Origin: Candidatus Kaiserbacteria bacterium
Lineage (GTDB): Bacteria; Patescibacteriota; Minisyncoccia; Phycocordibacterales; Phycocordibacteraceae
DNA: 64,000 nucleotides
Direction of reading: 5' to 3'
Assembly (NCBI GenBank): GCA_963813065.1
Contig: CAWEXP010000009.1
Coordinates: forward strand, 1,931 to 65,930
The position numbers and the translations under genes were made by a program. Of this stretch, positions 1 through 47,685 are shown in pieces. The notes beneath the pieces were generated by a model that was given only the letters and a program-made list of their open reading frames with translations, was not told the origin of the DNA and did not search any database. Positions within the stretch are counted from its first letter, which is position 1. Each line of letters begins with the position of its first letter.

Positions 1-210
1 GCCGGTCTTGGTGCGGCCGCGGCCGGGATCGAGCACGGGTAACGTGGTCTCGTCGGCGAACAGTTTTGGCCGCTCCTTGAGCTTGTCGAGCAGGCGTTGG
101 GTTTCCTCCCGGCGTGGACCGTCTGGTTTTGAGGACCTGATGCTCGGATAGATCGGGCATGAATGGCGCAATGATCGTGTCCATGTCAAATACAAGCGGA
201 CACTATCTGG

Positions 211-435
211 ATGTCGGGCGGCAAGGAGGATGATGGAGCGGCGCCCGGGCGCAGGCGTCGATCCTGGACCCTGGACGCGAAGCGTCGGATCGTTGACGAG
301 AGTTTGGTGGAAGGCGCATCGATCGCTGAGGTGGCTCGTCGGCACGAGCTCAACGCCAACCTGCTGTTCGCATGGCGGCGGAAAATGGGCTTTGTGGAGC
401 CGATCCGGAATAGCCGGCGCCGATCTTGCCAGTGA
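211..435 (+). CDS. tnpA: IS66 family accessory protein TnpA (orfA)
   Basis: 74 aa ...SWTLDAKRRIVDESLVEGASIAEVARRHELNANLLFAWRRK..., a typical IS66 OrfA HTH. Confidence 0.6.
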   Translation: MSGGKEDDGAAPGRRRRSWTLDAKRRIVDESLVEGASIAEVARRHELNANLLFAWRRKMGFVEPIRNSRRRSCQ

Positions 436-583
436 CCCTCATCGCCTATGGAGGCGTCAGAAGAATCCGGATCCAGGTCGGGCGGCCAGATTGAGATCGT
501 GCTCGCGAGGGTGATCGGATCATGGTGTGGTCGGACGTTGAGACAGCGGCGTTGTCGCGAGTTTTGAAGGCGCTGTCACGGCG

Positions 584-932
584 ATGATCCCAATTCCGAG
601 CGGCGTTAGGGTATGGATTGCGACTGGTCATACCGACATGCGGCGCGGCATGCAGGGTCTGGCGCTTCAGGTTCAGGAGAGTTCTAAACCGCGATCCCCA
701 TGCCGGCGATCTTTATATCTTCCGAGGTCGTCGCGGCGATCTCGCCAAGATCCTCTGGCACGACGGGATCGGGCTGTCGCTATACGCCAAACGACTGGAC
801 CGCGGAAAGTTCATCTGGCCGTCGGCATCAGGCGCCGCGGTGTCGATCTCGGCGGCGCAGATGGCGTACATGCTCGAAGGGATCGATTGGCGAAATCCGC
901 AACTGACGTGGCGGCCCAAGAGCGCGGGTTGA
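584..932 (+). pseudogene. tnpB: IS66 family TnpB (orfB), frameshifted
   Basis: The N-terminal part MIPIPSGVRVWIATGHTDMRRGMQGLALQVQE reads in the 584 frame. The remainder (...LYIFRGRRGDLAKILWHDGIGLSLYAKRLDRGKF...) reads in the 618 frame. A 1-nt frame change lies near 680-700. Confidence 0.55.
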
Positions 933-1002
933 TGAGCGCGGGCCGAACCGCAAAAATATTGGAGACAGTGCGCATTTTAGGACGCGCCAAATCGCGCGAT
1001 TT

Positions 1003-2473
1003 GTGATTCACTTCGACGCATGGATGCCGCTCGCGCCGTTCTTGCCGCAAGAAAACGCCGCCCTGAAAGCGGCGTTGACCGTTGCGCAGAACAAGGGCCT
1101 AAAGTCGGCGGAGCTGGCGGTCGCGCGCGCGAAGGCGTCAGAAGACATGGCGCTGATCGCGCAGCAGGAGCTTCGGATTGCGAAACTGGAGCGCCAGGTC
1201 TATGGGCAGCGCTCGGAACGCTCGGCGCGCCTGATCGATCAACTGGCGCTCAGCTTCGAAGATCTGGAAGCCAGCGCCACGGAAGACGAGCTGGCGGCAG
1301 AAAAGGCCGTCGCCAGCACGACCACGGTGGCCGGATTTACGCGCAAGCGTCCCGAGCGCAATACATTCCCCGACCATCTTCCCCGCGAGCGCGTGGTGAT
1401 CGATCCGCCGACGGCGTGTGCGTGCTGTGGCGGCAATCGTCTGCGCAAACTTGGCGAGGACGTGACGTGCACGCTGGAATCCATCCCCCGTCAGTGGAAG
1501 GTGGTCGAGACGGTTCGGGAGAAGTTCACCTGTCGGGATTGCGAGAAGATCTCGCAAGCACCGGCACCGTTCCATGTCATCGCGCGGGGCTGGGCGGGGG
1601 CAAGCCTGCTGGCGATGATTGTGTTCGAGAAATTTGGTCAGCACCAGCCTTTGAACCGTCAGGCCGAGCGTTATGCGCTGGAAGGCGTGCCAATCGCGCT
1701 GTCGACCATGGCCGACGCGGTGGGCTCGGTCTGTACGGCGCTCGATCCGCTCCTTCGCCTTGTGGAAACTCATGTGATGGCGGCCGAGCGCCTACATGGT
1801 GACGATACGACCGTGCCGGTTTTGGCTGAGGGCAAGACCGATACTGGGCGATGCTGGATCTATGTTCGAGACGACCAGCCCTTTGGCGGCGTCGGGCCGC
1901 CTGCGGCGATGTTCTACTACTCACGCGATCGCCGGGGCGAGCATCCGCAGGCGCATCTGGCCGGATATGCCGGCATCCTGCAGGCGGACGCCTATGACGG
2001 CTACAACAAGCTCTATCTGGCGGACCGCCGGCCCGGCCCGATCCGGGAGGCGGCGTGTTGGGTGCATGCGCGGCGACCATTCTTCGCCATGGCGGATCTT
2101 GAGGAGAACGCTCGCCGCAAAGCCGCAGGCAAGAAGGAAATCCCTCTATCGCCGATCGCGATCGAGGTCGTGCGCCGCATCGACGCGCTGTTCGAGATCG
2201 AGCGGTCCATCAACGGCAAGAGCGCCGAGGAGCGTATAGCGGTCCGACAAAACTTGAGCCGGCCGCTGGTTGATGATCTTCGGGTCTATATGCGTGAGCA
2301 GGCCGCCGGGCTCTCGCGCGGGCATGACCTGGTCAAGGCCATCAATTACATGCTCAAGCGTTGGCCGGCCTTCACCTTGTTCCTTGAAGATGGCCGCGTT
2401 TGTCTCTCAAACAACGCCGCCGAGCGAGGTCTGCGCGGCATCGCACTTGGGAAGAAAATCATGGCTGTTCTAA
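1003..2473 (+). pseudogene. tnpC: IS66 family transposase TnpC, 3' end disrupted
   Basis: Coiled-coil N-terminus, a CxxC...C zinc motif and a DDE core are typical of IS66 transposase. The conserved tail GRKSWLF-stop is found only in the +1 frame at 2452-2473. The in-frame continuation to 2760 is not transposase-like. Confidence 0.6.
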
Positions 2474-2740
2474 GTCTTCGTCAACGGGATTGTAGTCGTC
2501 TGGTCGAAGGAGTTTTACGACACCTTCACCGACAGCGATGCCCTTGGCGGGCCGATACACCTCGGTGCCTTCGCCGACAAGCTGCACGTACACCACTCGG
2601 ATCTTTTGCTGCGAAGTCTGTCATCGCGCGCTCCAACGGCAGGTCAAAGCATATCCCAGTCGCACTTCAGATTCACGATCACGCCGTCTCTCCATCGCAC
2701 GAATGCGACGCTGTCTTGCCAGCCACGTCATGCGGCGGGC

Positions 2741-2800
2741 AGGCCCGATCCCAAACCTAACCCCGATCCCAAACCCAAACCTAACCCACTCCTACCCGCG
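2741..2800 (+). repeat. short tandem repeat (CCCGATCCCAAACC(C/T)AA units; encodes PNPDPKPKPNP)
   Basis: Direct visual repeat at ccgatcccaaacctaaccccgatcccaaacccaaacctaaccc. Confidence 0.4.
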
Positions 2801-3445
2801 ATTGCCAATCACCGCCCACAGCCAAATCCACGGCAACAGCACGACGACGCGCCACTCGCGCGTGATCGCGTACATCGCACGGAAATCAGAAACACATAGC
2901 TTAGAAGAACAAGATGCGCGCTCTTGTCGACCATGATCTTCGCGCCGCCCCAGACCGCGAAGCCGACCGAGGCGAGTCCGAGAGACAATTGCAAGATTCG
3001 CCACGGGCGCGCGAGATACAGAGAGAGCATCGCCGTCGGCAAGAGCACCAACAAGAAGCCAATCACTCCGAGCACCAAGCGCTCCAACCCGATGAAGCCG
3101 GTGGCGCTTTGTTTGCAAGACCGGGAGTCGACGAATGGGCGGCTTCTTTTTTTGGCTCACAGGTTATTCGTTACGGGCAGGCGTATCGGCGGGGGATTCG
3201 AACGTGGGGGCAATGTTGAAACCGTTTGGGGATCGAGCGCTCCAAGCAGCGAGTGCGCGAGAGCCGATGTCACGCGAACAGGTACAATTTGGCCGAGATC
3301 AACGCGCGATAATCGCGCTCCAAAGGGGACATCAATATGCACGATCTCGTTTCGCTCGCTGCGGCCCATCACGCGGCTTGGGGTTCGCGATAGACGCACG
3401 CCGCCTGGGCGTGATTCGCCTTCGATCAACACATGCGCGCTACTG

Positions 3446-3724
3446 TCAACGAGCGACTGCAGATGCGCCCTCTGTTGTTTGTCGGAATGCTTCAAAAGGC
3501 TGTGCGAGCCGCGATTCTTTGATTTGTTCGGGCACGTTATCGGGCAGGTTCTGGGCGGGGGTTTGCGGGCGAACCGAGTACTTGAACCCAAAGAGCGCGC
3601 TGAATCCCGCTTCGGCGACCAACGAGAGTGTCTGCGCGAAGTCGTCGTCGGTCTCTCCCGAAAAGCCGACGATCACGTCGGTCGAAATCGTGATGTCAGG
3701 GCACGCCGTCTTGAGCGCGCGCAC
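3446..3724 (-). pseudogene. internal fragment of MiaB/RimO-like radical-SAM methylthiotransferase
   Basis: The 92-aa stretch ...TDVIVGFSGETDDDFAQTLSLVAEAGFSALFGFKYSVRPQTPA... matches the C-terminal half of MiaB-family enzymes. There is no N-terminal radical-SAM region. Confidence 0.5.
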
Positions 3725-3754
3725 TCCGTTTAAAATTGTTCGCGCGTGTAGCGA

Positions 3755-4150
3755 CGGATCATGCGACGTAAAATGGCGTTCGAACCCGATTGCACCGGCA
3801 GCTCAGAAATCGCCTTCAAGATCGCGGCATCAATGGCTTTCCAGGCGGCGGCCGAGCGCGCGAAGCCCGTTATCCTCGAGCCGATTATGAAGGTCGAGGT
3901 CGTCGCGCCGGACCAGTTCATGGGCGACATCACCGGCAACATCTCGGGCAAGCGCGGCGCCATCGAGAGCATCGAAGAGCGGGGCATGAACAAGGCGATT
4001 CACGCCAAGGTGCCACTCTCTGAAATGTTCGGCTACACCACCACGCTCCGTTCGATGACCGAGGGCCGCGGCTCGATGACGATGGAATTCGACCACTACG
4101 AGACTGTGCCAAACAATGTGGCGGCGGACATCATTGCTTCGCGCAAATAA
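3755..4150 (+). pseudogene. fusA: 3'-terminal fragment of elongation factor G (fusA), last ~130 aa only
   Basis: ...SSEIAFKIAASMAFQAAAERAKPVILEPIMKVEVVAPDQFMGDITGNISGKRG...VPLSEMFGYTTTLRSMTEGRGS... is the EF-G domain IV/V C-terminus. A stop lies immediately upstream at 3749. The miaB fragment abuts on the opposite strand. Confidence 0.65.
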
Positions 4151-4235
4151 CTCATAAAAAATCGAACGCACGCGCGCTTGCCGGGGGCAAGCGCGCGTGC
4201 TAGTTTCCAGAGCGGAACATCAGTGGAGAAGGTCA

Positions 4236-4720
4236 ATGAATAAAGCCGAGCCGATTGCCGCTCTTGCGAAAAAGTTCTTACAAGACAAAAGAGGAGAACC
4301 CTGTTTGCCGATGAAGGTAGTCGGGGATTCAGATTCGAAATGCCCCTTGCAGGAAAGCGTCGCGATTGTTGGTTCAACTACGATGGCTTCCAGCTTGTCC
4401 AGTTCAGCGCCGTTATCGGATCGGCACTGGTGAATCAAGCCGACTTCAACTTTAGAGAAGCTCTCGCCACTGCGGGCGAACGAGATCCTTTCTTCGGAAC
4501 ATTGGTGCTCATCAATGGCAATTTAACCCACGTCTTGAGCTACAAGTTTTCGCATCGCCATGAACATATCGACGAAGTGCTCAAAGCACTCCTCGATCAA
4601 GGAGCGTTCGAAGATCTCTATCGCCTCGACCTCATTCATCAACTATCGTTCAGGGGCGATGAACCATCGTACATTGTCCAGATGGATTTCCGTTTTGGAT
4701 ATCCTCAAGGGCATGCATGA
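4236..4720 (+). CDS. hypothetical protein, probable frameshift near 4380
   Basis: A GGAGAAGG Shine-Dalgarno precedes the ATG at 4236. The frame 4236-4433 and the frame 4340-4720 look like one gene split by a 1-nt indel. GC is lower than in neighbours. A terminator follows. Confidence 0.3.
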
Positions 4721-4729
4721 CCCTTTACT

Positions 4730-4761
4730 CTGCCGCCGGCGCAATGCCGGCGGTTTTTTTA
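4730..4761 (+). terminator. intrinsic terminator (GCCGCCGGCGCAATGCCGGCGG + T7)
   Basis: GC-rich hairpin followed by a T-run. Confidence 0.6.
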
Positions 4762-4884: not shown

Positions 4885-6084
<1,200 letters not shown>

Positions 6085-6177: not shown

Positions 6178-6573
6178 ATGACAGCGGCACTTACAGAAAA
6201 ACCGAAGGCGAAGCGCGTGGCGAAACCACGCGTGGCTAAGGTTGCTACTGCCGCCGCTCTCCCCGAGGAGCACAAGCTCCGCATCCGCGTTCGCGCCTAC
6301 GAACACAAGATTCTCGACGTCTCGGTCAAGCAGATTATGGATACCGCCGCTCGCTTCGACGCGAAAGTCGTTGGCCCGGTGCCACTCCCGACCGAGATCA
6401 AGCGCTGGACCGTCAATCGCTCCACTTTCGTCCACAAGGACGCGCGCGAGCAGTTCGAGATGCGCATCCACAAGCGCCTTATCGATATTTTGAATCCCTC
6501 GCCGAAAGTTATCGAGGCACTCACTAATTTGAATCTTCCTTCCGGCGTCACGATTGATGTGAAGATGGTTTAA
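6178..6573 (+). CDS. rpsJ: 30S ribosomal protein S10 with ~29-aa basic N-terminal extension
   Basis: ...LRIRVRAYEHKILDVSVKQIMDTAARFDAKVVGPVPLPTEIKRWTVNRSTFVHKDAREQFEMRIHKRLIDI... Confidence 0.9.
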   Translation: MTAALTEKPKAKRVAKPRVAKVATAAALPEEHKLRIRVRAYEHKILDVSVKQIMDTAARFDAKVVGPVPLPTEIKRWTVNRSTFVHKDAREQFEMRIHKRLIDILNPSPKVIEALTNLNLPSGVTIDVKMV

Positions 6574-6593
6574 CCTGAGCGCAGTCGAAGGTT

Positions 6594-6622
6594 CGACAAA
6601 CCGCCCGCAAGGGCGGCTTTGC
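6594..6622 (+). terminator. intrinsic terminator directly after rpsJ
   Basis: aaaccgcccgcaagggcggctttgctattt. Confidence 0.55.
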
Positions 6623-6669
6623 TATTTCCGAAATAGAGCGTACTGTCTCGGCAGGGAAGAGAGGCACAT

Positions 6670-6921
6670 ATGTTCAAACAGCTACAGGCACTATGCCAGT
6701 ACATGGTACGTCGGTGGCGCGAAATGCGTCTCAGACAGCTCGAGAAACGCTTCCAACAGCTGGAGTGGGATTATAACCACTGGAGCTGGATGCGAGACGG
6801 ATCCGGCGCACTCATTGATTGTTGCGACGAGCGTCGAGAGGTTTACAGAAGGCGTGTTCGACTCAGCGACCTTCTCGGTCTGCCGGCACCCCAGCCGATC
6901 GATAATCCATGGGCATTTTAA
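6670..6921 (+). CDS. hypothetical small protein (Trp/Arg-rich), lower GC
   Basis: 83-aa ORF between rpsJ and rplC, followed by the hairpin aaccgggccctcgtggcccggtttt. Confidence 0.3.
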   Translation: MFKQLQALCQYMVRRWREMRLRQLEKRFQQLEWDYNHWSWMRDGSGALIDCCDERREVYRRRVRLSDLLGLPAPQPIDNPWAF

Positions 6922-6976
6922 ACAACCGGGCCCTCGTGGCCCGGTTTTCCATGCTCCCATGATATAATCACCCGCA

Positions 6977-7291
6977 ATGAAGAAGGTGAAACACGCGAAA
7001 AAATACGAGCCAACACTCACCGACGTGCTCGAGGCGGTGCAGGTTGGCTTTGGGAAACATGATGAACGATTTGATTCGATGGATAGACGATTCGATACTA
7101 TAGAACAACGGCTCGATAATCACGACAGATTGCTCAAGTCTCTCCACGGGGGCCAGGAAAATCTGAAAGAGCAGGTGCAGGATATCAACCATCGCCTAAT
7201 CAAGACCCAAAACCGCGTCGAAGATATTGCCGACATTCTCGAGGTTGACCACGAGCGCCGCATCACGCGGCTCGAGAAGGCCCGCGCTTGA
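6977..7291 (+). CDS. hypothetical coiled-coil protein (paralog of 12049..12426)
   Basis: 104 aa MKKV...EPTLTDVLEAV...FD.MDRRFDTIEQRLDNHDR...HERRITRLEK. It shares N-terminal and heptad-like motifs with the ORF at 12049. GC is ~49%. Confidence 0.5.
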   Translation: MKKVKHAKKYEPTLTDVLEAVQVGFGKHDERFDSMDRRFDTIEQRLDNHDRLLKSLHGGQENLKEQVQDINHRLIKTQNRVEDIADILEVDHERRITRLEKARA

Positions 7292-7439
7292 TTTCTGCTC
7301 CGTTTGCATCTTTTAAGGCCATCGTGTAGAGTGCCCTCATCGCTACGAACCCCATGAGACAGCGAAGCTGGCTTTTACGGGGGTCCTATGGCAGAGGGTT
7401 TTTCTAACCCCGCGCCATTTGGCGCGATTTGCTTAAAAA

Positions 7440-8064: not shown

Positions 8065-8829
8065 ATGGCCAATGCAAAGAAAAAATTGAATAAGAAGCTC
8101 CGCAGTCACGGGAAGCCGAAGTCCGTCGTGACGCCAGGCAAGGAAAAGGCCGCCGTTGCGGGCCCGATTGAACTCGCCGTCTACTCGATGGCAGGGAAGA
8201 AGATTTCGACCATGACTCTTCCCGAGAACCTTTTCGGTGCCAAGTGGCGCCCGGATCTCGTGCACCAAGTGACGACCGCGATGCAGGCCAACTTGCGCCA
8301 GAACCGCGCTCACACCAAGGATCGCGCCGAGGTGTCTGGCGGCGGCAAGAAGCCCTGGAAGCAGAAGGGTACCGGCCAGGCACGTCATGGTTCCTCGCGT
8401 AGCCCAATCTGGCGCCACGGCGGTGTCACTTTCGGTCCGCGCTCGGAGCGTGACTACAGCGAGAAGATTAATAAGAAGATGCGCAACCAGGCGCTCATCT
8501 CGGTACTCTCGCAGAAAGCGAAAGATGGTGAGTTGATTCTTATCGACTCCTTCTCCTTCGAGGCACCGAAGACGGCCCTCGCCATCAAGGCGCTTGGTGC
8601 CATCGCGAAGGCGACCTCGCCCTCCTTGGCGACCAAGCGCGTCAACGCGGCCCTCATCGCCCTCGCCTCGCACTCGGCGAACACCATCAAGTCGTTCCAG
8701 AATATCGGGAGCGTCGCGACCGAGGAGGCACGCAACTTGAATCCGGTCGAGATTCTTTCGCACCGCTATCTCATCATCGAGAACCCGGAAGTCTCGTTCG
8801 CGACACTCTCCGCTCGCCTTAAGAAATAA
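8065..8829 (+). CDS. rplD: 50S ribosomal protein L4 with lysine-rich N-terminal extension
   Basis: MANAKKKLNKK...GGGKKPWKQKGTGQARHGS...; ATG at 8065. Confidence 0.9.
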   Translation: MANAKKKLNKKLRSHGKPKSVVTPGKEKAAVAGPIELAVYSMAGKKISTMTLPENLFGAKWRPDLVHQVTTAMQANLRQNRAHTKDRAEVSGGGKKPWKQKGTGQARHGSSRSPIWRHGGVTFGPRSERDYSEKINKKMRNQALISVLSQKAKDGELILIDSFSFEAPKTALAIKALGAIAKATSPSLATKRVNAALIALASHSANTIKSFQNIGSVATEEARNLNPVEILSHRYLIIENPEVSFATLSARLKK

Positions 8830-10064: not shown

Positions 10065-10069
10065 TTTCA

Positions 10070-10110
10070 CAAGAAAACCCCCGCGCGCCGTCTCGGCGCG
10101 CGGGGGTTTT
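10070..10110 (+). terminator. intrinsic terminator after rplB (interrupts the S10 operon)
   Basis: aaaacccccgcgcgccgtctcggcgcgcgggggtttt. Confidence 0.7.
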
Positions 10111-10171
10111 CGTTGCAGTTCTTGCATTCTTGCGTTAGGCTCTCGCAAGATGAAGCCATAAGGAGGCCGCA

Positions 10172-10729
10172 ATGAGTGACCATAAAGAGCCTGTAAACCC
10201 AAACTTGGTGCAGGTAGAATTCATTCTTGTTGACATACCTGCCAAGACAGGAATCGAGTCCGATATCCAAACGCTTGCACTCGAGCTGGCCGGCAGGTTG
10301 CCGAAGCTCGTGGTGCGGTTCTTCGATGAGCGGGGACTGGTGACGAAGCTGGTGCAAGACTATGAAGCTACGCAGTCAGCCTACGGAGTGACCATAATCG
10401 AACTGGGGAAGATGAGTTTTGGTGGTCGATTTGCAGTCTCTGAGCAACGCGATGTCGCTCGTCTTTCGCGGAAAATGGACGCACTACGAGGCCAAGCGCG
10501 CTCACTCACAGTCGGCATGTTGAGTAGTGTCACGAAAGGGTCTCGCAGAATCGCCATCGAAGATTCGCCCGATCGACCTTTGCGCATGGCAGTCGAGGCC
10601 GAGTTCGACCACCTGGTCACCACGGCCAAGAAGGCAAAAGATGTGTTCATTTTCGTCTTCAAACCGAACGATCTTCTTTCCGAGAAGAACGAAGCTGTTG
10701 TCAGTATGGTATTTAAGCTCCAGCTGTAG
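10172..10729 (+). CDS. hypothetical protein (island gene, lower GC)
   Basis: An AGGAGG Shine-Dalgarno lies 6 nt upstream. 185 aa. The gene ends in TAG followed by the hairpin CCCCGCTCTGGCGGGGATTTTATTT. Confidence 0.5.
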   Translation: MSDHKEPVNPNLVQVEFILVDIPAKTGIESDIQTLALELAGRLPKLVVRFFDERGLVTKLVQDYEATQSAYGVTIIELGKMSFGGRFAVSEQRDVARLSRKMDALRGQARSLTVGMLSSVTKGSRRIAIEDSPDRPLRMAVEAEFDHLVTTAKKAKDVFIFVFKPNDLLSEKNEAVVSMVFKLQL

Positions 10730-10815
10730 CCCTCTCCCCGCTCTGGCGGGGATTTTATTTGCCTGTAACATGTCCTTGTGGTATAAGATGGCCAGAGCAA
10801 CCGAAGGAGAAACCA

Positions 10816-11199
10816 GTGATTATTCTTGAAAAGATGTCTCGCAAAATCTCGTTCTCTGCGGGCAATCATTTCCGTCGCGCCAATTTTATCGAAGAAATTG
10901 GCGATAGCTCAATGGTGGTGTGCGTTTGGTCGCAGTGTTCATTATGGGATACAGGCGTCTTCCGTGTCAGGCATGTGCCTGTCGTCGACACGGGCGTTGA
11001 AGTGTTCCAGCGTGGTCAGCCGATTCTCGACATCACCCAACAAATCAAGGGATATGCTCCCGCGAGCCTCATCACACCTCTTGAGCACCTCACTACCAAT
11101 GTTTCCTTGTGGAAACTGAAAGTGAGTCTTGAATCATCGGTCCTCGATGCGGTTGGCAAGGTATCGTTCCCAGACTTTCTTAACATCGAGTTCGAATAA
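10816..11199 (+). CDS. hypothetical protein (island gene)
   Basis: A GTG start with a perfect AAGGAG Shine-Dalgarno 7 nt upstream. The ORF track's upstream TTG at 10759 is the less likely start. Terminator CCCCGCGCAATGCGGGGATTTTTATT follows. Confidence 0.4.
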   Translation: MIILEKMSRKISFSAGNHFRRANFIEEIGDSSMVVCVWSQCSLWDTGVFRVRHVPVVDTGVEVFQRGQPILDITQQIKGYAPASLITPLEHLTTNVSLWKLKVSLESSVLDAVGKVSFPDFLNIEFE

Positions 11200-11228
11200 C
11201 GTGCCTGCCCCGCGCAATGCGGGGATTT

Positions 11229-11996
11229 TTATTGTTGATACTGCGGTTGAAGAATGGTGCGAATCTGCGAGACCGGGATGCGGAGCGTCTGCGGGCCCGA
11301 GGAGTACGGCGCGACCTGGTAGGGAGCGAAGAGGATAATGAAATCCTTGTTGTCGAAGAAGAAATTCTGGAAATTAGCGGCTTCGGGCGTCGTGCCGGGG
11401 TTGATGAAGGTCGGGTCAGCGCTATCGCCGATGATGGCGGGGAGCATCTGCCGCGCGAGGGTCGAGAGTGTGCCCAGATAATCGGAACCGCTCAAGAAAA
11501 TATCGCTCAAGGCGAGTGCTTGTCCGGTCGAGGTGTCGAAGGTGAGGGTCGAGAAGCTCGTGTTGGGGTGCGCGCCGAGCGTATCTTCGTAGGTGGTGAA
11601 GATGTAGGAAACCGTGCGGGGCGAAGAAGCGATGAGGTAGGTAATCTGGAGCGATTCTTTGCTTCCTTTATCGAATCCCATCATCGAAATGTCGCGCAGT
11701 GAGAGATGGTCGAAGTTGCCCTGCGTCTTGAAGTCGCTAATAATCCCGCTGACGAGCGATTGGATCTTCGCAATGGCGGCGCGGTCGGCCGCGGCACCCG
11801 CAGTTTCAGCGAGCGGGGTCGAGGTCGGATAGTTGGCGGCAATGTCGTAGTACGGCGCGTGCTCGGTGTCGCCGCCCTCTGGAAGCGTGAGAACGACGGG
11901 CGCCGAGACTGGCGTCGGCTTCACTGCCGCGTAGAACACAATCCCCACCACAATCACGACCAGCACCGCGCCACCGATAATCAGTTCTTTTTTCAT
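11229..11996 (-). CDS. membrane-anchored DUF3298/DUF4163-like (RsiV/PdaC-type) protein
   Basis: An N-terminal TM helix, then ...YYDIAANYP...ITYLIASSPRTVSYIFTTYEDTLGAHPNTSFSTLTFD... Confidence 0.5.
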   Translation of the reverse strand: MKKELIIGGAVLVVIVVGIVFYAAVKPTPVSAPVVLTLPEGGDTEHAPYYDIAANYPTSTPLAETAGAAADRAAIAKIQSLVSGIISDFKTQGNFDHLSLRDISMMGFDKGSKESLQITYLIASSPRTVSYIFTTYEDTLGAHPNTSFSTLTFDTSTGQALALSDIFLSGSDYLGTLSTLARQMLPAIIGDSADPTFINPGTTPEAANFQNFFFDNKDFIILFAPYQVAPYSSGPQTLRIPVSQIRTILQPQYQQ

Positions 11997-12048
11997 GTGA
12001 ACAGTCTAGCAAATCGGGCGAATATGGGCGCGTGATAGAATAACGAGC

Positions 12049-12426
12049 ATGAAGAAGGTCACAAAATCGATCGCGATTAAGGAGCCCACCCTTACGGAGG
12101 TTCTCGCTGTTATGAATGAGCGTTTCGACGTGGCTGAATCTCGTATGGAAAATAGATTTGGTGACATTGAAATCCGCATCGACAAACGTTTCAATTCTTT
12201 GAATGAGCGCTCGAACGGAATCGACGCGCGACTTGGTGTTATTGAAAGGCGGGCTGGTAAAATTGAGAACACTCTCGGCGATATACAAGATGATTTGACT
12301 TCCGCACTTGCCGCCACCGATAACGATGGTTCTGCGATTTTGAATCACGAACACCGCATCGCGCACCTAGAGAAATTGAGCAATATTAAAATCGTTCCAC
12401 CCCGGCATCTCGTCGGTCTTGAATAG
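12049..12426 (+). CDS. hypothetical coiled-coil protein (paralog of 6977..7291)
   Basis: MKKV...KEPTLTEVLAVMNERFD...RFGDIEIRIDKRFNSL...HEHRIAHLEK. A bidirectional terminator with a GATTAC loop follows. Confidence 0.5.
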   Translation: MKKVTKSIAIKEPTLTEVLAVMNERFDVAESRMENRFGDIEIRIDKRFNSLNERSNGIDARLGVIERRAGKIENTLGDIQDDLTSALAATDNDGSAILNHEHRIAHLEKLSNIKIVPPRHLVGLE

Positions 12427-12458
12427 AAAAACCCCGCCGATTACGGCGGGGTATCGTC

Positions 12459-12776
12459 TTACTCTTCGTTTGGGTTATAACTGAGTAAACGACCTCTTCT
12501 GGTTTGCGTGTTGTAAGTGCCTTTCAGGTATAAGTATTCACGATTTTTATACCGCTCAAGGGACGGTGCATTGACCAGATGGCCGTTACATACGATTTCC
12601 CACGGCTCGCCCTCACCAGAGCCTCGCTTAACTATGTCGATGGTTAGACTGTAGACATATTCTCCATCTCCGCCGTGGAAATGGAATTTCTGGGGAACGC
12701 CCTGAGCGAGTCCTGGAATTAACAACCCCCATTGCGAAGGACCGTTCACAACGAGATAATTCACTCCATGGGCCAT
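12459..12776 (-). CDS. hypothetical protein
   Basis: 105-aa ORF convergent with the 12049 ORF. Confidence 0.35.
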   Translation of the reverse strand: MAHGVNYLVVNGPSQWGLLIPGLAQGVPQKFHFHGGDGEYVYSLTIDIVKRGSGEGEPWEIVCNGHLVNAPSLERYKNREYLYLKGTYNTQTRRGRLLSYNPNEE

Positions 12777-12860
12777 CCGACCCTCCTTTGATACATGATC
12801 TCCTCATCGGTGCGGAAATCGAACACCCTGACTCCTCGCGGAGCGACCTACCCATACAGA

Positions 12861-13923
12861 CGCGCATTCTCATATGAATCCGAACACTCGCGGTATTGTG
12901 CGTGCATGAAAAAAGAAACGTTGGAAGCAGCTGAGCACGAGCGAGCGGTCTGAGATTTCAATACTGAAGCGCAAGAAGTATTCGCTCCGTGCGATTGCTC
13001 GAGCTCTTGGCCGCAGTGTTTCCAGCATCTCGGAAGAGTTGAAGAGGAATCGAGTGCGAGGTTTGTATGATGTACAGAAGGCTGCACACAAGGCGTATGC
13101 ACGAAGAAAGTACGCGAAGTATCAAGGCATGAAGATCGTCGGGCATGCGGGTCTGCGTTCACTCGTGGAAGAGCTGTTGTATGACGACCAATCGCCCGAG
13201 AACATCGCCGGAAGAGTCCGGAAGTATGCCAAGCGTCTGCCGACCATCTCGAAAGACGGCGTGTACCGATTCATCAAAAGCGTGTATGGCCGGAGAATTG
13301 AGTCGCATCGGAACGCGCGAAAGCAGAAACGAAGAAAGTATCACCCGAGAGTCGCGGCTCTTTCAGAGCGAACCTTCATCGACAAACGGCCCAGGCATAT
13401 CAACGCTCGTTCGAGGAGCGGAGATGTCGAGGCTGACTTCATTGTCTCGGGCAAGACTGGCAGAGGCATCCTGCTCGTGGTGGTCGACCGGAAGCTCCGC
13501 GTCACGTTCATCGAACGCATTCTCGATGTGTCAGTGGCGAACGTGCACCGGGCATTCCTCCGCATTCAACAGAGATTCCCCGAGCTCCGCACCATCACCA
13601 CTGACAACGATATTTTGTTCCAGATCATCAGGCACTCGCCACTCTTCTGGGGGTGCGCATCTATTTCTGTCGGCCGTATCACTCCTGGGAGAAAGGAACG
13701 GTTGAGAATACAAACGGCGTCATACGCAAAGACATACCGAAAGGCGCAAACATTTCTCGCTATTCAAAGGCATTTATACAAAAGCTCGAGGACAAGCTGA
13801 ACCGGAGGATACTGAAATGCCTCCAATACAAAACTCCGGCGGAAGCATTAGCTGCGGTACGGAAACGAAAAAAGCGCCGAGGCGCATGAAATTCGAGTGT
13901 TCGGATTGAGCCCGTCGAGCGGG
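12861..13923 (+). mobile_element. IS30-family insertion sequence, copy 1 (1063 bp; 3-bp TSD AGA)
   Basis: Ends CGCGCATTCTCATATGAATCCGAACACTCG ... CGAGTGTTCGGATTGAGCCCGTCGAGCGGG share the inverted core AATCCGAACACTCG. The flanks are acAGA|IS|AGAta. The copy is identical to 40332-41395 except for a 1-bp deletion. Confidence 0.85.
12906..13889 (+). pseudogene. IS30 family transposase, copy 1 (extra 1-bp deletion at ~13618 splits the DDE domain)
   Basis: The HTH region ...KKKRWKQLSTSERSEISILKRKKYSLRAIARALGRSVSSISEELKRN... lies in the +1 frame relative to the ATG at 12906. The DDE region ...TTDNDILF follows. This copy reads ttccagatc where copy 2 reads ttccgagatc. Confidence 0.8.
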
Positions 13924-14016
13924 AGATAGGAATTGATTTCAATATACACCCTTATGCAAATCTGTCAAAGTTTTAAAATGGGCTAGGGATTCTCGGGCAA
14001 TTTGGATTTGCCCGAG

Positions 14017-14045
14017 TTGACGGCTGGGAGAGACTCGTGTATCTT
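14017..14045 (+). promoter_or_regulatory. candidate promoter (TTGACG-17-TATCTT) re-initiating transcription of rpsS and downstream genes after the IS30/island insertion
   Basis: -35/-10-like hexamers with 17-nt spacing, 36 nt upstream of rpsS. Confidence 0.35.
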
Positions 14046-14049
14046 GCCT

Positions 14050-14078
14050 CTATCCCGTTCGGCGGGATATTTATTTCA
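14050..14078 (+). promoter_or_regulatory. terminator-like hairpin in the rpsS leader (possible attenuator)
   Basis: CCCGTTCGGCGGGATATTTATTT lies between the candidate promoter and the rpsS ATG. It is the same motif family as the hairpins at 10733 and 11204. Confidence 0.35.
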
Positions 14079-14080
14079 CT

Positions 14081-14485
14081 ATGGCACGATCACTCAAGAA
14101 GGGACCCTACGTGGACGTCAAACTCCTCAAAAAGGTCCAAAAAGCTCAGTCCCGCACCGCGGGGGTGATTAAGACGTGGGCGCGCGGAAGCCGAATCAGC
14201 CCGGAAATGGTTGGTTTCACCTTCGGCGTCCACAACGGCAAGAGCCACATTGAGGTCCTCGTCTCTGAGGAGATGGTGGGGCATCGGCTCGGTGAATTCT
14301 CGCCGACCAAGAAGTTCATCCGCCACGGTGGCAAGATGCAGAAGGAGCTCGAACAGAAGCGCCAGGAGTCGGAGGTCGCCGCCGCCAAGGCCGCCTCTGC
14401 CGCTCCGCCGCTAAGAAATAATTTGTATGAAAGCGACTCTCGAAAGCCACAATCAGTCCCCGCGCAAGGTCCGCCTCGTGGCTGA
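14081..14485 (+). CDS. rpsS: 30S ribosomal protein S19; 3' boundary uncertain (reads 59 nt into rplV)
   Basis: [19 protein letters not shown]...[45 protein letters not shown]... The ORF runs ~40 aa past the usual S19 end to a TGA at 14483. Confidence 0.7.
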
Positions 14486-14744
14486 CCTCGTGAAAGGGAA
14501 GAAGGTCCCGGCGGCGCTCTCGGCGCTCGCGTTCCTCCCCAAGCGCGCGAGCGAGCCAGTCGCCAAGCTCATCAAGAGCGCGGCCGCTAATGCCAAGGAC
14601 AAGGGCGAGAACCCGAAGAGCTCACGATAGGTCAATCACCCGTCGAGAGCGCGGAAATGTCGAAGCGTTTCATGCCGCCACGCCTTCGGCCGCGCCTCGG
14701 CGATTCGCCACAAGAAGAGCCGCATTAAGGTCGTCCTCGCGTAA
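14427..14744 (+). pseudogene. rplV: 50S ribosomal protein L22 with an in-frame TAG at 14628-14630
   Basis: [27 protein letters not shown]...[55 protein letters not shown]. Homology to L22 continues in the same frame across the stop. Confidence 0.7.
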
Positions 14745-14749
14745 CTTCT

Positions 14750-15439
14750 ATGACTCACACCGTACATCCCTATGCGCACCGCCTCGGCATCATCCGCGAC
14801 TGGAAGAGCCGTTGGTTCGCCGCCGACAAGAAGAGCTACCGCGAGAATATCAAGGTAGACGCCGCACTCCGCGCCTTCCTCGAGAAGAAGCTCCACGGTA
14901 CCTACACCTCGGGTATCGACATCGAGCGCTCGGCGACCGAGCTCCGCGTGATCCTGGCCACCGCCCGCCCCGGCTCGTGATTGGTCGCTCGGGCGAGAAC
15001 GCCGCCGAGCTCCGCGCCGAGATCACTAAGGTCGCCCGCAAGGTGGCGCCTCTTGATCGCCGCACGGTGAAGTTCGATATCGTCGAAGTGCGCCAGCCGG
15101 AGACAGACGCGGCGGTCGTCGCGGCGATGGTCGCCGAAGGCCTTGAGAAGCGTATGCCCTTCCGCCGCGTGCTCAAGCAGACGGTCGAGAAAGTGAAGGC
15201 CGTCCGCGAGGTCGAGGGCGTGCGCATCACGATCAGTGGCCGCCTCGGCGGCGCCGAGATGTCGCGCAAAGAGGAAATCAAGCGCGGACGCATCCCGCTC
15301 CAGACCTTCCGTGCGGACATCGACTGGCCTATGGCAAAGCTCCAGCTCCGTACGCGTCATCGACATCAAGGTTTGGATTTACCGCGGCAATATCTTCGCC
15401 GAGAAGAAGGCGGCAAGCCCGAGCCTCTCGCGGGCCTAA
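14750..15439 (+). pseudogene. rpsC: 30S ribosomal protein S3 with at least two frameshifts
   Basis: The N-terminus MTHTVHPYAHRLGIIRDWKSRWFA...ILATARPG ends at 14980. The next segment LVIGRSGENAAELRAEITK...GRLGGAEMSRKEEIKRGRIPLQTFRADID reads in another frame; a 1-nt deletion occurs at ggc(c)tcgtg. The C-terminus VIDIKVWIYRGNIF is in a third frame. Confidence 0.75.
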
Positions 15440-40331: not shown

Positions 40332-41395
40332 CCCGCTCGACGGGCTCAATCCGAACACTCGAATTTCATGCGCCTCGGCGCTTTTTTCGTTTCCGTACCG
40401 CAGCTAATGCTTCCGCCGGAGTTTTGTATTGGAGGCATTTCAGTATCCTCCGGTTCAGCTTGTCCTCGAGCTTTTGTATAAATGCCTTTGAATAGCGAGA
40501 AATGTTTGCGCCTTTCGGTATGTCTTTGCGTATGACGCCGTTTGTATTCTCAACCGTTCCTTTCTCCCAGGAGTGATACGGCCGACAGAAATAGATGCGC
40601 ACCCCCAGAAGAGTGGCGAGTGCCTGATGATCTCGGAACAAAATATCGTTGTCAGTGGTGATGGTGCGGAGCTCGGGGAATCTCTGTTGAATGCGGAGGA
40701 ATGCCCGGTGCACGTTCGCCACTGACACATCGAGAATGCGTTCGATGAACGTGACGCGGAGCTTCCGGTCGACCACCACGAGCAGGATGCCTCTGCCAGT
40801 CTTGCCCGAGACAATGAAGTCAGCCTCGACATCTCCGCTCCTCGAACGAGCGTTGATATGCCTGGGCCGTTTGTCGATGAAGGTTCGCTCTGAAAGAGCC
40901 GCGACTCTCGGGTGATACTTTCTTCGTTTCTGCTTTCGCGCGTTCCGATGCGACTCAATTCTCCGGCCATACACGCTTTTGATGAATCGGTACACGCCGT
41001 CTTTCGAGATGGTCGGCAGACGCTTGGCATACTTCCGGACTCTTCCGGCGATGTTCTCGGGCGATTGGTCGTCATACAACAGCTCTTCCACGAGTGAACG
41101 CAGACCCGCATGCCCGACGATCTTCATGCCTTGATACTTCGCGTACTTTCTTCGTGCATACGCCTTGTGTGCAGCCTTCTGTACATCATACAAACCTCGC
41201 ACTCGATTCCTCTTCAACTCTTCCGAGATGCTGGAAACACTGCGGCCAAGAGCTCGAGCAATCGCACGGAGCGAATACTTCTTGCGCTTCAGTATTGAAA
41301 TCTCAGACCGCTCGCTCGTGCTCAGCTGCTTCCAACGTTTCTTTTTTCATGCACGCACAATACCGCGAGTGTTCGGATTCATATGAGAATGCGCG
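40332..41395 (-). mobile_element. IS30-family insertion sequence, copy 2 (1064 bp; 3-bp TSD GTA), inserted in msrA
   Basis: Identical to copy 1 apart from one base. The flanks ...gagGTA|IS|GTAtcgc reconstruct the msrA codons G-T-E-Y-R-S. Confidence 0.9.
40366..41349 (-). CDS. IS30 family transposase, copy 2 (HTH in +1 frame after an A6 tract; 283-aa DDE ORF intact)
   Basis: The ORF 40366-41217 is intact, including ...TTDNDILFRDHQALATLLGVRIYFCRPYHSWEKGTVENTNGVIRKD... The N-terminal HTH lies upstream in the +1 frame relative to the ATG at 41349. Confidence 0.8.
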
Positions 41396-44887: not shown

Positions 44888-45358
44888 ATGACTATTCCAT
44901 CCGTTGGTACCGCCGCTCCTGCGTTTACGCTCCCTGACCAGGATGGCAAAGAGCACACGCTTGCCGATTATCGGGGAAAATGGGTTTTGCTCTATTTCTA
45001 CCCCAAGGACGATACTCCTGGTTGCACCATAGAAGCCTGCACCATCCGTGATCAGTTCAAAGATTTCAAAACGATTGGCGCGGTCGTGCTCGGCGTCTCG
45101 ACTGACTCGGTCGCGAGCCACAAGAAGTTCGCGAGCGCCTACGAGCTCCCCTTCACTCTCCTCGCAGACGTACACAAAGAAGTCGTGGGGAAGTACGGCG
45201 TCTTCGGCGAGAAGAAGTTTATGGGCCGCACCTACATGGGCACCGCACGCACGTCATTTCTGATTGATCCCAAAGGCACCGTCGCAAAAGTGTACGAGCA
45301 CGTGAAGCCGGAGAAACACGCCGCCGAGGTCATTGCGGATTTGAAAGCATTGTCATGA
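44888..45358 (+). CDS. bcp: thiol peroxidase / peroxiredoxin Bcp
   Basis: ...VLLYFYPKDDTPGCTIEAC... Confidence 0.8.
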   Translation: MTIPSVGTAAPAFTLPDQDGKEHTLADYRGKWVLLYFYPKDDTPGCTIEACTIRDQFKDFKTIGAVVLGVSTDSVASHKKFASAYELPFTLLADVHKEVVGKYGVFGEKKFMGRTYMGTARTSFLIDPKGTVAKVYEHVKPEKHAAEVIADLKALS

Positions 45359-46020
45359 CGCTATCGCTCGCAGAGCGGAAAGCACGCCCTACTTCGCTAA
45401 AGCTACGTAGGGCAAGGGCGAAGAAAATTGTCGCATACCTGAAGAAGACGTACCCGGTGCCCAAGAGCGAATTGCGGTACTCGACGCCCCTGCAATTCCT
45501 CGTGGCGGTGATGCTCTCGGCGCAATGTACCGACAAGACGGTGAATCGCGTCACGGAAAAACTCTGGAAGAAATACAAAACGGCGAAAGACTTTGCAAAG
45601 GCCAAGCCCGCTGTTTTCCAGAAAGAAATTTCGAGTATCACTTTTTTCCGCAACAAGACGAAAGCGATTATCAGTACCGCCAAAATCATTCAAAATGATT
45701 TTGGCGGTACGGTTCCACATACTGAAGCCGAGCTCGTCACTCTGCCTGGTGTCGGCTACAAGACCGCGCACGTCGTGCTCGGCGAGCTCTATGGCATCTG
45801 GGAGGGCATCGCGACCGACACGCACGTCAAGCGATTCGCGAAACGTTTTGACCTAACCGACAACGACGACCTTAAAAAGATTTCCAAAGACTTGGAGGTG
45901 CTTATACCGAAAAAAGACTGGAAATACGTCAACAACGGCCTTGTCCTCTACGGCCGCTACGTCTGTCCGGCCCGCCCGCATGATTGCTCTAGGCATCCGC
46001 TGACGCTGGCGGTACGATAG
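45355..46020 (+). CDS. nth: endonuclease III (HhH-GPD, 4Fe-4S)
   Basis: ...LVAVMLSAQCTDKTVN...LPGVGYKTAHVVL...DTHVKR...C.ARPHDC... It contains a 28-bp repeat at 45387-45414 in its N-terminal tail. Confidence 0.8.
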   Translation: MTLSLAERKARPTSLKLRRARAKKIVAYLKKTYPVPKSELRYSTPLQFLVAVMLSAQCTDKTVNRVTEKLWKKYKTAKDFAKAKPAVFQKEISSITFFRNKTKAIISTAKIIQNDFGGTVPHTEAELVTLPGVGYKTAHVVLGELYGIWEGIATDTHVKRFAKRFDLTDNDDLKKISKDLEVLIPKKDWKYVNNGLVLYGRYVCPARPHDCSRHPLTLAVR

Positions 46021-46024
46021 CGGC

Positions 46025-46709
46025 ATGCAAAAGGTCGCCGTATTCGACATCGACGGAACCGTCTTCCGCTCCTCGCTTCTGATTGAACTGGTCGAGCGGC
46101 TGGTGAAAGAAGGTGTGTTCCCACCCGAGACGCGTGCCGCGTATGAGGTCGAGCGCGTGCGTTGGCTCGACCGGAAGGGCGACTACCCGAGCTATATCAA
46201 TAAGGTCGTACAAGTTTTTGCAAAACAACTGAAAGGCGTGCCCTACGAGACGGTCGCGGACATTGCGGGCGAGGTGATTGAAGAGCAGAAGGACCGCGTC
46301 TATCGCTACACCCGCGACCTGATTCGCGAAGTGAAAAAGAAAAAATATTTCCTGCTCGCCATCTCGCACTCGCCCAAGTTTATTGCCGATGGCTTCTGTC
46401 ACGAGCAAGGGTTCGACAAGGTCTACGGCACCTTCTACTCGACCGGCCCCTCGGGCAACTTCACCGGCCTGATGGAGGATGAAGCGTTAATAAAAAATAA
46501 AGCGGCGGTACTCACGCGCGCGGTGCGGAAGGAGAGCCTGACACTCGAAGGCTCGATTGGCGTTGGTGACACCGAGAGCGACATCGGTATGCTCGATCTC
46601 GTCGAGCGTCCGATTTGTTTCAATCCGAATCAAGAACTCTACACGCATGCGAAGTCGTCGCGGATGGGAAGTGGTGGTGGAACGAAAAGATGTTATCTAC
46701 CAAATCTGA
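46025..46709 (+). CDS. HAD-superfamily phosphatase, frameshift near 46660
   Basis: FDIDGTVF DxDxT motif. The C-terminus continues in another frame (...RRGWEVVVERKDVIYQI-stop at 46707-46709). Confidence 0.55.
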
Positions 46710-47685
46710 GAAGCTGCGGCATATTTCTCGAAGGGTACGCGATTTTTCTGCTGAAAAATCGCTCAGTCCTCGTGCCAGTCGCACTGCGGAGCCCCTTCTC
46801 GCAACATGCCGCACCTTCTCGAACACTGTCTGGAGATTTTGGCGCGCACAGGGCCGTCATGATTTGCCGTGGAGGAAGACCAAAGACCCGTACCGAATTC
46901 TGGTGTCAGAAGTGATGCTCCAACAGACCCAAGTCGAGCGCGTGGTGCCGTTTTATCACCATTTCATAAAACAGTTCCCGACGGCGAAAAAGTTGGCGCG
47001 AGCACCGCTCGCAGATGTGTTGAAAAGTTGGCAAGGGCTCGGTTACAATCGTCGCGCGAAGATGTTGCACGAGGCGGCGCAAGAATTATCGAGGTTAAAC
47101 CTCGATATAACAAGGTCGAACCTTGTTGCGACGCTGGAAAAATTGCCTGGGGTAGGGCCGTACACGGCGCGCGCGGTGGCGGCGTTTGCCTACAATCAGG
47201 ACGTCGTTTTTGTTGAGACGAATATCCGGACGGCGATTTTGCACCATTTTTTTCCACGCGAGGCAGAAATGTCCCCGGCTCAGGGTGCTCCGGCCGCTAG
47301 GCCAATTCAACCCTTCGCCAAGGACATTTTTGCCTCGCGCGTTGACGACGCGCAGATTTCAACAGTCCTCGAAAAACTTTTGCCGAAAGGGAAGTCGCGC
47401 GAATGGTACAGCGCGCTGATGGACTATGGTGCACATTTAAAAAAGTCCGGTATACAAGTAAATGCAAAAAGTTCGCATTATATAAAACAATCGCGGTTTT
47501 CTGGCTCGAAGAGGGAAGCGCGTGGCGCGATCTTGAAGGAGCTGGCGCATGGCTCGCGGAGTGAGTCGCGCGTACTCGGGCTTCTCGGCCCCGACCGCGT
47601 CCCGCAGATGAGAGAAGCGCTCGCGGCGCTCCTCGCCGAGCAGTTGGTACAAAAAAACGGCAAGGTCTTCACCTTGCCGCGTTGA
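46690..47685 (+). CDS. A/G-specific adenine glycosylase-like (MutY / HhH-GPD) protein; start uncertain
   Basis: ...LPWRKTKDPYRILVSEVMLQQTQVERVVPFYHHFIKQFPT...LGYNRRAKMLHEAAQ...LPGVGPYTARAV... The ORF as read spans the repeat element. The true start may be downstream of it. Confidence 0.6.
   Translation: MLSTKSEKLRHISRRVRDFSAEKSLSPRASRTAEPLLATCRTFSNTVWRFWRAQGRHDLPWRKTKDPYRILVSEVMLQQTQVERVVPFYHHFIKQFPTAKKLARAPLADVLKSWQGLGYNRRAKMLHEAAQELSRLNLDITRSNLVATLEKLPGVGPYTARAVAAFAYNQDVVFVETNIRTAILHHFFPREAEMSPAQGAPAARPIQPFAKDIFASRVDDAQISTVLEKLLPKGKSREWYSALMDYGAHLKKSGIQVNAKSSHYIKQSRFSGSKREARGAILKELAHGSRSESRVLGLLGPDRVPQMREALAALLAEQLVQKNGKVFTLPR
46714..46828 (+). ncRNA. copy 2 of the ~115-nt structured repeat, 3' of the HAD gene
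   Basis: GCGATTTTTC-TGCT-GAAAAATCGC and GTGC-CAGTC-GCAC hairpins, with covarying pairs relative to copy 1. Confidence 0.5.

Follow-up and report, generated by a model that had tools for sequence, protein, structure and literature searches.

A probable chimeric join inside fusA at the left end of a Candidatus Kaiserbacteria contig

What lies upstream of tuf in a Candidatus Kaiserbacteria bacterium? The question is raised by a 64-kb stretch of contig CAWEXP010000009.1 (assembly GCA_963813065.1), called the window here. Its left end (positions 1 to 4200) carries an insertion sequence (IS) of the IS66 family, a fragment of a MiaB methylthiotransferase gene, and the 3' end of fusA, the gene for elongation factor G (EF-G). 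A reading of the letters made earlier, hereafter the sequence-only reading, offered two explanations: a scar of IS-mediated deletion and rearrangement in an essential operon, or a chimeric join in the assembly. The second is the better supported. We conclude that the left 3.8 kb is probably a chimeric join in a noisy, and likely long-read, metagenome assembly, and that the left-end feature is most probably not biological. We favor this interpretation because the left end combines three taxonomic affinities, its joins are blunt and fall inside genes, relatives carry full-length fusA where only a truncated piece of this essential gene stands here, that piece shows no relaxation of selection, and the consensus contains insertion and deletion (indel) errors.

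An inventory built from the open reading frame (ORF) list, six-frame translations, and a Pfam scan divides the left 4.2 kb into three blocks: IS66 sequence (1–2471), minus-strand genes (2472–3801), and Candidatus Kaiserbacteria sequence from 3802 (Table 1). The IS66, the MiaB fragment, and the EF-G fragment all lie within positions 1–4160, as the sequence-only reading had it, and their matches are far above chance. Specifically, the Pfam E-values are 4e-13 (HTH_Tnp_1), 2e-24 (TnpB_IS66), 1.1e-80 (DDE_Tnp_IS66), and 8e-31 (EFG_C), and the best match E-values of the MiaB/RimO fragment reach 6.6e-61. The early impression that the IS66 is proteobacterial in type and that the remainder of the window is not also holds: from 3802 onward, the sequence is 85–94% identical in amino acids to Candidatus Kaiserbacteria. 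The two sides of the join thus differ in taxonomic origin.

The join to the Kaiserbacteria sequence is blunt, and it interrupts two genes at once. When the window was compared by blastn with 80+ related loci, for which upstream flanks of up to 10 kb were included, all alignments began at 3802 or 3803. At the level of single bases, the MiaB-derived codons CTG CCG GTG CAA (minus strand) stop at 3801, and EF-G-derived bases run from 3802. MiaB is cut at its LPVQSGS motif and EF-G at about residue 600, and comparison of individual bases with EF-G relatives and with MiaB homologues revealed no microhomology between 3801 and 3802. The sequence-only reading had placed this abutment at about 3725–3760 and had credited EF-G with about 130 codons. 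Both values need revision: the real EF-G sequence comprises 116 codons, corresponding to residues 600–715 of a 715-amino-acid relative. Its coding extent is 3800/3802–4147. An ORF opens earlier, at 3761, but its initial 13 codons are MiaB fragment sequence read in antisense.

Was this fusA fragment a decaying relic before it came to lie beside MiaB? A full EF-G has a GTPase domain and domains II–V in about 700 amino acids; the fragment has residues 600–715 only, matching Pfam EFG_C and the last 22 positions of EFG_IV. It is 85% identical in amino acids to the same residues of a Kaiserbacteria EF-G, 85–88% identical to those of Kaiserbacteria and Patescibacteria metagenome-assembled genomes (MAGs), and 91% identical to the closest relative (86.8% in nucleotides). 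The 115 EF-G codons aligned with the nearest relative contain no gap and no stop, and the nonsynonymous (dN) and synonymous (dS) divergences are 0.052 and 0.61, respectively. The resulting dN/dS of 0.086 stands beside 0.083 for tuf in the same comparison. Codon usage is likewise native-like, scoring 0.334 per codon where native genes average 0.258 ± 0.10 in a leave-one-out calculation. Because of this low dN/dS and this native codon usage, we conclude that, right up to the join, the fragment belonged to a working gene, with no relaxed selection.

In relatives of the locus, the gene is complete. A full-length fusA ORF of 715–809 amino acids that contains the matched segment is present in all 17 of the closest loci examined. 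The contig of the nearest relative (GCA_936414265.1) carries, from first to last, rpsL, rpsG, fusA (715 amino acids), a small ORF, tuf, and rpsJ. DNA homology between this contig and the window starts at position 3803 of the window, equivalent to codon 601 of the relative's fusA. In the window itself, tblastn found no rpsL, no rpsG, and no further fusA sequence across the 64 kb, in line with the earlier statement that a full str operon is missing; rpsL, rpsG, fusA, and tuf do not form a contiguous series ahead of the S10 operon. Scans with the EF-G fragment returned at best 86% identity among genomes and 88% among metagenomes. With the best EF-G fragment at 88% and the best Tuf at 94%, the searched collections held no contig from the same population.

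The DNA left of the join has other affinities. The MiaB piece runs from the LPVQSGS motif through the TRAM domain, for which the Pfam match is weak, to its stop at 3157. It lacks UPF0004 and the cluster-binding part (CxxxCxxC) and so is a gene fragment, not a gene. Two single-nucleotide frameshifts interrupt it, one near 3733, where T4 stands and T5 is needed, and one near 3468, where A3 stands and A2 is needed. The best matches, at 61% amino acid identity, are unnamed short metagenome contigs of the Joint Genome Institute. The only named relatives are Polyangia (Polyangiaceae, Labilithrix, and Minicystis), at about 50–53%, and the Minicystis MiaB locus has no downstream genes in common with the window. 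Between the IS66 and the MiaB fragment lie two small minus-strand ORFs that the sequence-only reading missed, both without a Pfam family. The ORF at 2472–2596 takes its last three codons and its stop from IS66 sequence; the ORF at 2792–3087 spans two frames, with one apparent single-nucleotide frameshift near 2895–2900. The noncoding gap between them contains an imperfect C/A-rich tandem repeat (CCGATCCCAAACC(CAAACC)TAACC, two copies) at 2745–2790.

The leftmost block is an IS66 in which tnpA, tnpB, and tnpC follow one another in the order, and with the domains, that define the family: a helix-turn-helix protein, the IS66 Orf2 protein, and a DDE transposase with zinc finger and leucine zipper. 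Positions 109–2471 are colinear with annotated IS66 copies. The closest plasmid copy is that of pHY1 from Methylovirgula sp. HY1 (Beijerinckiaceae), 88.6% identical in nucleotides across 694–2471, followed by a Methylocystis rosea plasmid at 78% across 109–2471. The search for a proteobacterial donor at above 95% identity, proposed by the sequence-only reading, therefore found at best 88.6% in the plasmid collection. TnpC is 92.6% identical in amino acids to the Methylovirgula copy (550 amino acids), and the best metagenome matches, 550-amino-acid proteins on short contigs, reach 94%; Rhodoblastus and one Acidobacteriota MAG supply further named relatives. Positions 1–108, which had been overlooked, belong to a second IS66. 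Megablast matches at 2–70 are IS66 family transposase genes on the opposite strand, and the minus-strand translation of 1–108 matches residues 263–282 of the window's own TnpC by tblastn. The IS66 at 109–2471 is inserted into this piece or abuts it.

This IS66 is incomplete. All plasmid alignments end at 2471, about 200 bp short of the end of tnpC, and the Methylovirgula alignment ends at ...TGGCTGTTCT, beyond which the reference sequence diverges. It lacks the last 64–70 or so codons of tnpC, a small fourth ORF, and the right inverted repeat. Within 1–4200, the IS66 left end has no inverted counterpart, and the element has neither a pair of terminal inverted repeats nor a target-site duplication. 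None of its three reading frames is intact, although the disruptions may be consensus errors. The tnpC tail had been described as out of frame. It is, for two causes: a single-nucleotide insertion at about 2446 and the end of the IS66 sequence at 2471. The copy present here cannot be an active element.

Could the IS66 nevertheless have produced the joins? No IS end lies at either one: junction 1 falls in the interior of tnpC, and junction 2 in the interiors of MiaB and fusA. At the joins we found no target duplication and no att-like repeat, no integrase accompanies them, and the left end and the rest of the window have no repeats in common that could have caused a mis-join in an assembly graph. 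Because neither join lies at an IS terminus and neither has a target duplication or an att-like repeat, transposition or IS-mediated deletion cannot have made them. The IS66 here did not create the junctions.

The reading frames of the left end carry a further clue. Positions 1–3801 contain six or seven frameshifts: one or two in tnpA, one each in tnpB, tnpC (at about 2446), and the membrane-protein ORF, and two in MiaB. Those resolvable against homologues are gains or losses of single bases in short base runs, and no nonsense substitutions or multi-base deletions were seen in the genes of this region. The sequence-only reading took the frameshifts for degradation of the IS. Most likely, they are sequencing errors, and pseudogenization was rejected as their cause, because the same kind of indel breaks two essential native genes: rplV (L22) has two frame changes and rpsC (S3) three, which amounts to five indels in about 750 bp (14427–15420; 14.6–15.4 kb), and those resolvable at base level are ±1 nucleotide. 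The other conserved genes checked are intact, namely those for Tuf, S10, L3, L4, L23, L2, S19, L16 to L6, SecY, Adk, Map, NDK, IF3, L35, L20, and GroEL. A frameshift in infC, suspected from a partial Pfam match, proved false. The assembly consensus has patches of indel error, which suggests long-read data with uneven polishing or uneven support; the homopolymer-length spectrum gave no signature of a sequencing platform. Frameshifts are dense across 1–3801 and absent from 3802 to about 14.6 kb, a pattern that fits a drop in read support left of 3802.

In composition, the IS66 segment is a tetranucleotide outlier (z = 5), and the foreign ORFs fit native codon usage poorly (0.063 for tnpC, 0.029 for tnpB, and -0.06, 0.075, and -0.15 for the parts of MiaB).

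How might such a contig arise? The 3.8 kb would come from other members of the community and would be foreign to the Kaiserbacteria chromosome at that position. Putatively, it comprises an IS66-rich stretch of alphaproteobacterial type and part of a Polyangia-like genome, two segments perhaps already contiguous in one donor. If the two blocks were contiguous there, with a truncated IS66 beside a small ORF, a single artificial join, between 3801 and 3802, would be needed. The notion is that a Kaiserbacteria fragment, broken by chance at about codon 600 of fusA, was joined end to end with the foreign DNA during library preparation or assembly, that is, in vitro or in silico and not inside a living cell. 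Most likely, the assembler would have extended or bridged a contig with the help of a chimeric long read. In the real genome, rpsL, rpsG, and fusA would lie directly upstream of 3802. The source community is likely to have been soil or peat, a setting that relatives such as Methylovirgula, Methylocystis, Rhodoblastus, and Polyangia-like bacteria fit.

Several observations pull the other way. The case for an artefact is inferred from sequence alone, and the search for adapter remnants (Oxford Nanopore Technologies, SMRTbell, and Illumina) yielded none near the joins and only chance 11-mers elsewhere. Two joins within 1.3 kb imply a three-part chimera unless the first two segments were already joined in a donor. 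The middle segment (2472–3801, 1.3 kb) is not a clear tetranucleotide outlier (z = 1.5), and frameshifts that end at the junction are also expected if pseudogene decay was limited to inserted junk. Further points lend support to a real insertion. In that scenario, at least 3.8 kb of foreign DNA entered upstream of tuf by illegitimate recombination, the last 348 bp of fusA were duplicated, and an intact rpsL-rpsG-fusA would be found beyond the left edge of the window. The 116-codon piece would be displaced or duplicated and the foreign genes inert cargo. The deposited contig is 82,148 bp long, and the up to 18 kb of it beyond the window could hold the intact fusA. Moreover, partial copies of the fusA 3' end occur naturally in the clade. 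At locus L009, from a Patescibacteria MAG, a direct repeat of the fusA 3' end (101 bp, 98% identical, at 10237–10337 and 13460–13560) flanks a 3.2-kb insertion with an 827-amino-acid ORF, followed by a 450-amino-acid ORF and then tuf. The spacer between fusA and tuf is, in addition, highly variable among Kaiserbacteria relatives, from about 0.4 to 5.9 kb (loci L003, L004, and L009 among them), and terminator-like hairpins seem to insulate tuf, so an insertion here need not be lethal. We nonetheless regard a real insertion as unlikely. L009 is the only one of 161 related loci with a second fusA 3' copy, and its arrangement looks like a tandem duplication: what was inserted there is a paralogous gene of native appearance rather than a patchwork of truncated pieces from other phyla. 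A Polyangia-like MiaB piece and a truncated, nested IS66 are improbable cargo in a genome as streamlined as this one, at about 1 Mb, the junction has no integrase, att-like repeat, or target duplication, and the frameshifts resemble the sequencing errors in L22 and S3 rather than decay, with its nonsense substitutions and multi-base deletions. The specific claim that a Candidatus Kaiserbacteria cell, a member of the Candidate Phyla Radiation (CPR), truly integrated soil-bacterial DNA between fusA and tuf by illegitimate recombination, with duplication of the fusA 3' end, strikes us as improbable. Insertion by an integrative element specific for the fusA 3' end was considered as well and rejected: the locus has no integrase or att-like repeat, and the lone L009 copy looks tandem-duplicated.

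IS elements cause adjacent deletions, and the IS66 lies 1.3 kb from the fusA breakpoint. Could an IS66-mediated deletion or rearrangement have removed rpsL, rpsG, and most of fusA from the Kaiserbacteria chromosome, the scar envisaged by the sequence-only reading? Such an event leaves an IS terminus at the breakpoint, whereas here no junction coincides with an IS66 terminus, the MiaB fragment borders the fusA breakpoint, and the IS lacks its right end. All three genes of the element, tnpA, tnpB, and tnpC, are also frameshifted. Without other copies, of which the window has none, a cell could not survive the loss of fusA, rpsL, and rpsG, and every relative examined keeps a full-length fusA next to tuf. 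We therefore judge this scenario highly implausible. A last candidate is a real but unrepresentative molecule, meaning rare rearranged or damaged DNA that was sampled a single time and then assembled; it could be a dead-end variant, or extracellular DNA that became joined in the environment. Blunt joins, an undecayed EF-G fragment, and low consensus quality left of the join would all fit; by sequence, such a molecule is indistinguishable from a library chimera, and it has no positive support. We consider it very unlikely.

The distinction between a chimeric join and a real one has practical consequences. In the case of an artefact, the Kaiserbacteria bin should be trimmed of the ~3.8 kb at the start of the window, and possibly of more of the 82-kb record. 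Neither the IS66 nor the MiaB fragment should then count as CPR genes or as evidence of horizontal transfer into CPR bacteria, and no gene loss should be read into the apparent absence of rpsL, rpsG, and fusA. Consensus frameshift errors, including those in L22 and S3, will break gene calls. If the join is real, it would represent an unusual cross-phylum integration of DNA beside an essential operon of a streamlined genome. True integration in Kaiserbacteria would show directly that an ultra-small bacterium had captured DNA across phyla at its core translation operon.

Table 1. Features at the left end of the window and the first native genes that follow.
Positions	Strand	Feature	Basis
1–108	-	Piece of a second IS66-family tnpC, DDE region, reads ...LFADETTLPVLDPGRGRTKTG	Megablast, translation, tblastn
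109–2471	+	IS66, left ~80% of the element	Pfam; plasmid nucleotide alignments
211–584	+	tnpA, frameshifted	HTH_Tnp_1
584–932	+	tnpB, 1-nucleotide insertion near 686–690	TnpB_IS66
1003–2471	+	tnpC, 1-nucleotide insertion near 2446	DDE_Tnp_IS66, LZ_Tnp_IS66, zf-IS66
2471–2472		Junction 1: interior of IS66 tnpC / 3' part of minus-strand small ORF, both cut	Alignment
2472–2596	-	Small ORF VVYVQLVGEGTEVYRPAKGIAVGEGVVKLLRPDDYNPVDEDL..., C-terminus cut by junction 1	ORF list, translation
2792–3087	-	Small predicted membrane-protein ORF, downstream of the MiaB fragment	Six-frame translation
3157–3801	-	MiaB/RimO-family radical-SAM methylthiotransferase, C-terminal half	Translation
3801–3802		Junction 2: interior of MiaB (-) / interior of fusA (+), codon ~600, blunt	Base-level comparison
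3802–4150	+	fusA 3' end: EF-G residues ~600–715 (end of domain IV and domain V), stop 4148–4150	BLAST, Pfam
4168–4200		G+C-rich hairpin, 15-bp stem, terminator-like, T tail on the minus-strand side	Directly after fusA stop
4732–4754	+	Terminator-like hairpin, T7 tail, 130 bp upstream of tuf	Sequence
4885–6084	+	Intact tuf, 399 amino acids, first complete native gene; then rpsJ, rplC, rplD, rplW, rplB	Pfam

Downstream of the fusA fragment, the native sequence has features of its own. The hairpin with the T7 tail ahead of tuf suggests that tuf and the S10 operon would be transcribed from their own promoter. Between the two hairpins, the fusA-tuf spacer contains an ORF at 4340–4720 with no Pfam match. 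Tuf is 90% identical in amino acids to Kaiserbacteria Tuf and 94% identical to that of the closest relative. An Rfam scan of the window returned a single tRNA-Ser, at 59.6 kb, and nothing else.

An 870-bp spacer between rpsJ and rplC (6574–7439) has a lower G+C content (~52%) and small ORFs at 6670–6921 and 6977–7291, which have only weak, sub-threshold Pfam matches to coiled-coil families; among relatives (L001, L007, and L010), this spacer ranges from none to about 4.8 kb. Inside the S10 operon, between rplB and rpsS, lies a 4-kb insertion (10065–14080) with a DUF3298 gene on the minus strand (11229–11996) and several ORFs that lack Pfam matches. The closest relative (L165) has a 1.9-kb insertion at the same site with the same DUF3298 gene, and thus the interruption between rplB and rpsS is ancestral in the clade. 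Three ribosomal ORFs (6178–6573, 8065–8829, and 14081–14485) seem longer than is usual for S10, L4, and S19: the S10 ORF, of 131 amino acids, may have an N-terminal extension, L4 (254 amino acids) has a lysine-rich N-terminus, and S19 (134 amino acids) has a C-terminal extension.

Farther right, a 283-amino-acid ORF on the minus strand (40366–41217) has a match to the rve integrase core at E = 2.5e-6, below the Pfam cut-off, and may be a transposase or integrase remnant in the native part of the window. Finally, a HAD hydrolase ORF (46025–46915) and an HhH-GPD glycosylase ORF (46615–47685) overlap by 300 nucleotides, each in its own frame, and a second HhH-GPD gene (45355–46020) lies beside them. 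The overlap could reflect over-long ORF calls or another frameshift.

How does the locus compare with known systems? The IS66 copy resembles those of Methylovirgula pHY1 and Methylocystis rosea in its three-gene order and in possessing all the characteristic Pfam domains; unlike them, it is incomplete, has three or four frameshifts, and abuts another IS66 fragment. With respect to canonical str and S10 operons, the fusA 3' end, the spacer, tuf, rpsJ, and rplC onward stand in canonical order, whereas foreign sequence takes the place of rpsL, rpsG, and fusA codons 1 to ~599. The duplicated fusA 3' fragment of L009 also directly precedes the next gene and has unrelated DNA to its left. It measures 101 bp, in contrast to 348 bp in the window, and the window has no second copy, repeat, or integrase, while the neighbor of its fragment is a truncated gene from another phylum. 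Escherichia coli prophages in icd carry a replacement 3' end; there, too, a 3' fragment lies beside unrelated DNA, but the window holds no integrase and no second copy.

One parallel is technical. Chimeric long reads that stitch together different genomes, and so give rise to chimeric assemblies, are a recognized source of error (10.1101/2025.09.05.674543, section 4.8, Supplementary Figure 7). The window differs from such contigs in having two joins 1.3 kb apart, where one is usual, and in being known here only through its sequence. Like the chimeric long-read contigs (10.1101/2025.09.05.674543), it has unrelated taxa joined bluntly within genes, joins that lack a mobile-element end or repeat, a truncated essential gene, and a poor consensus on the foreign side.

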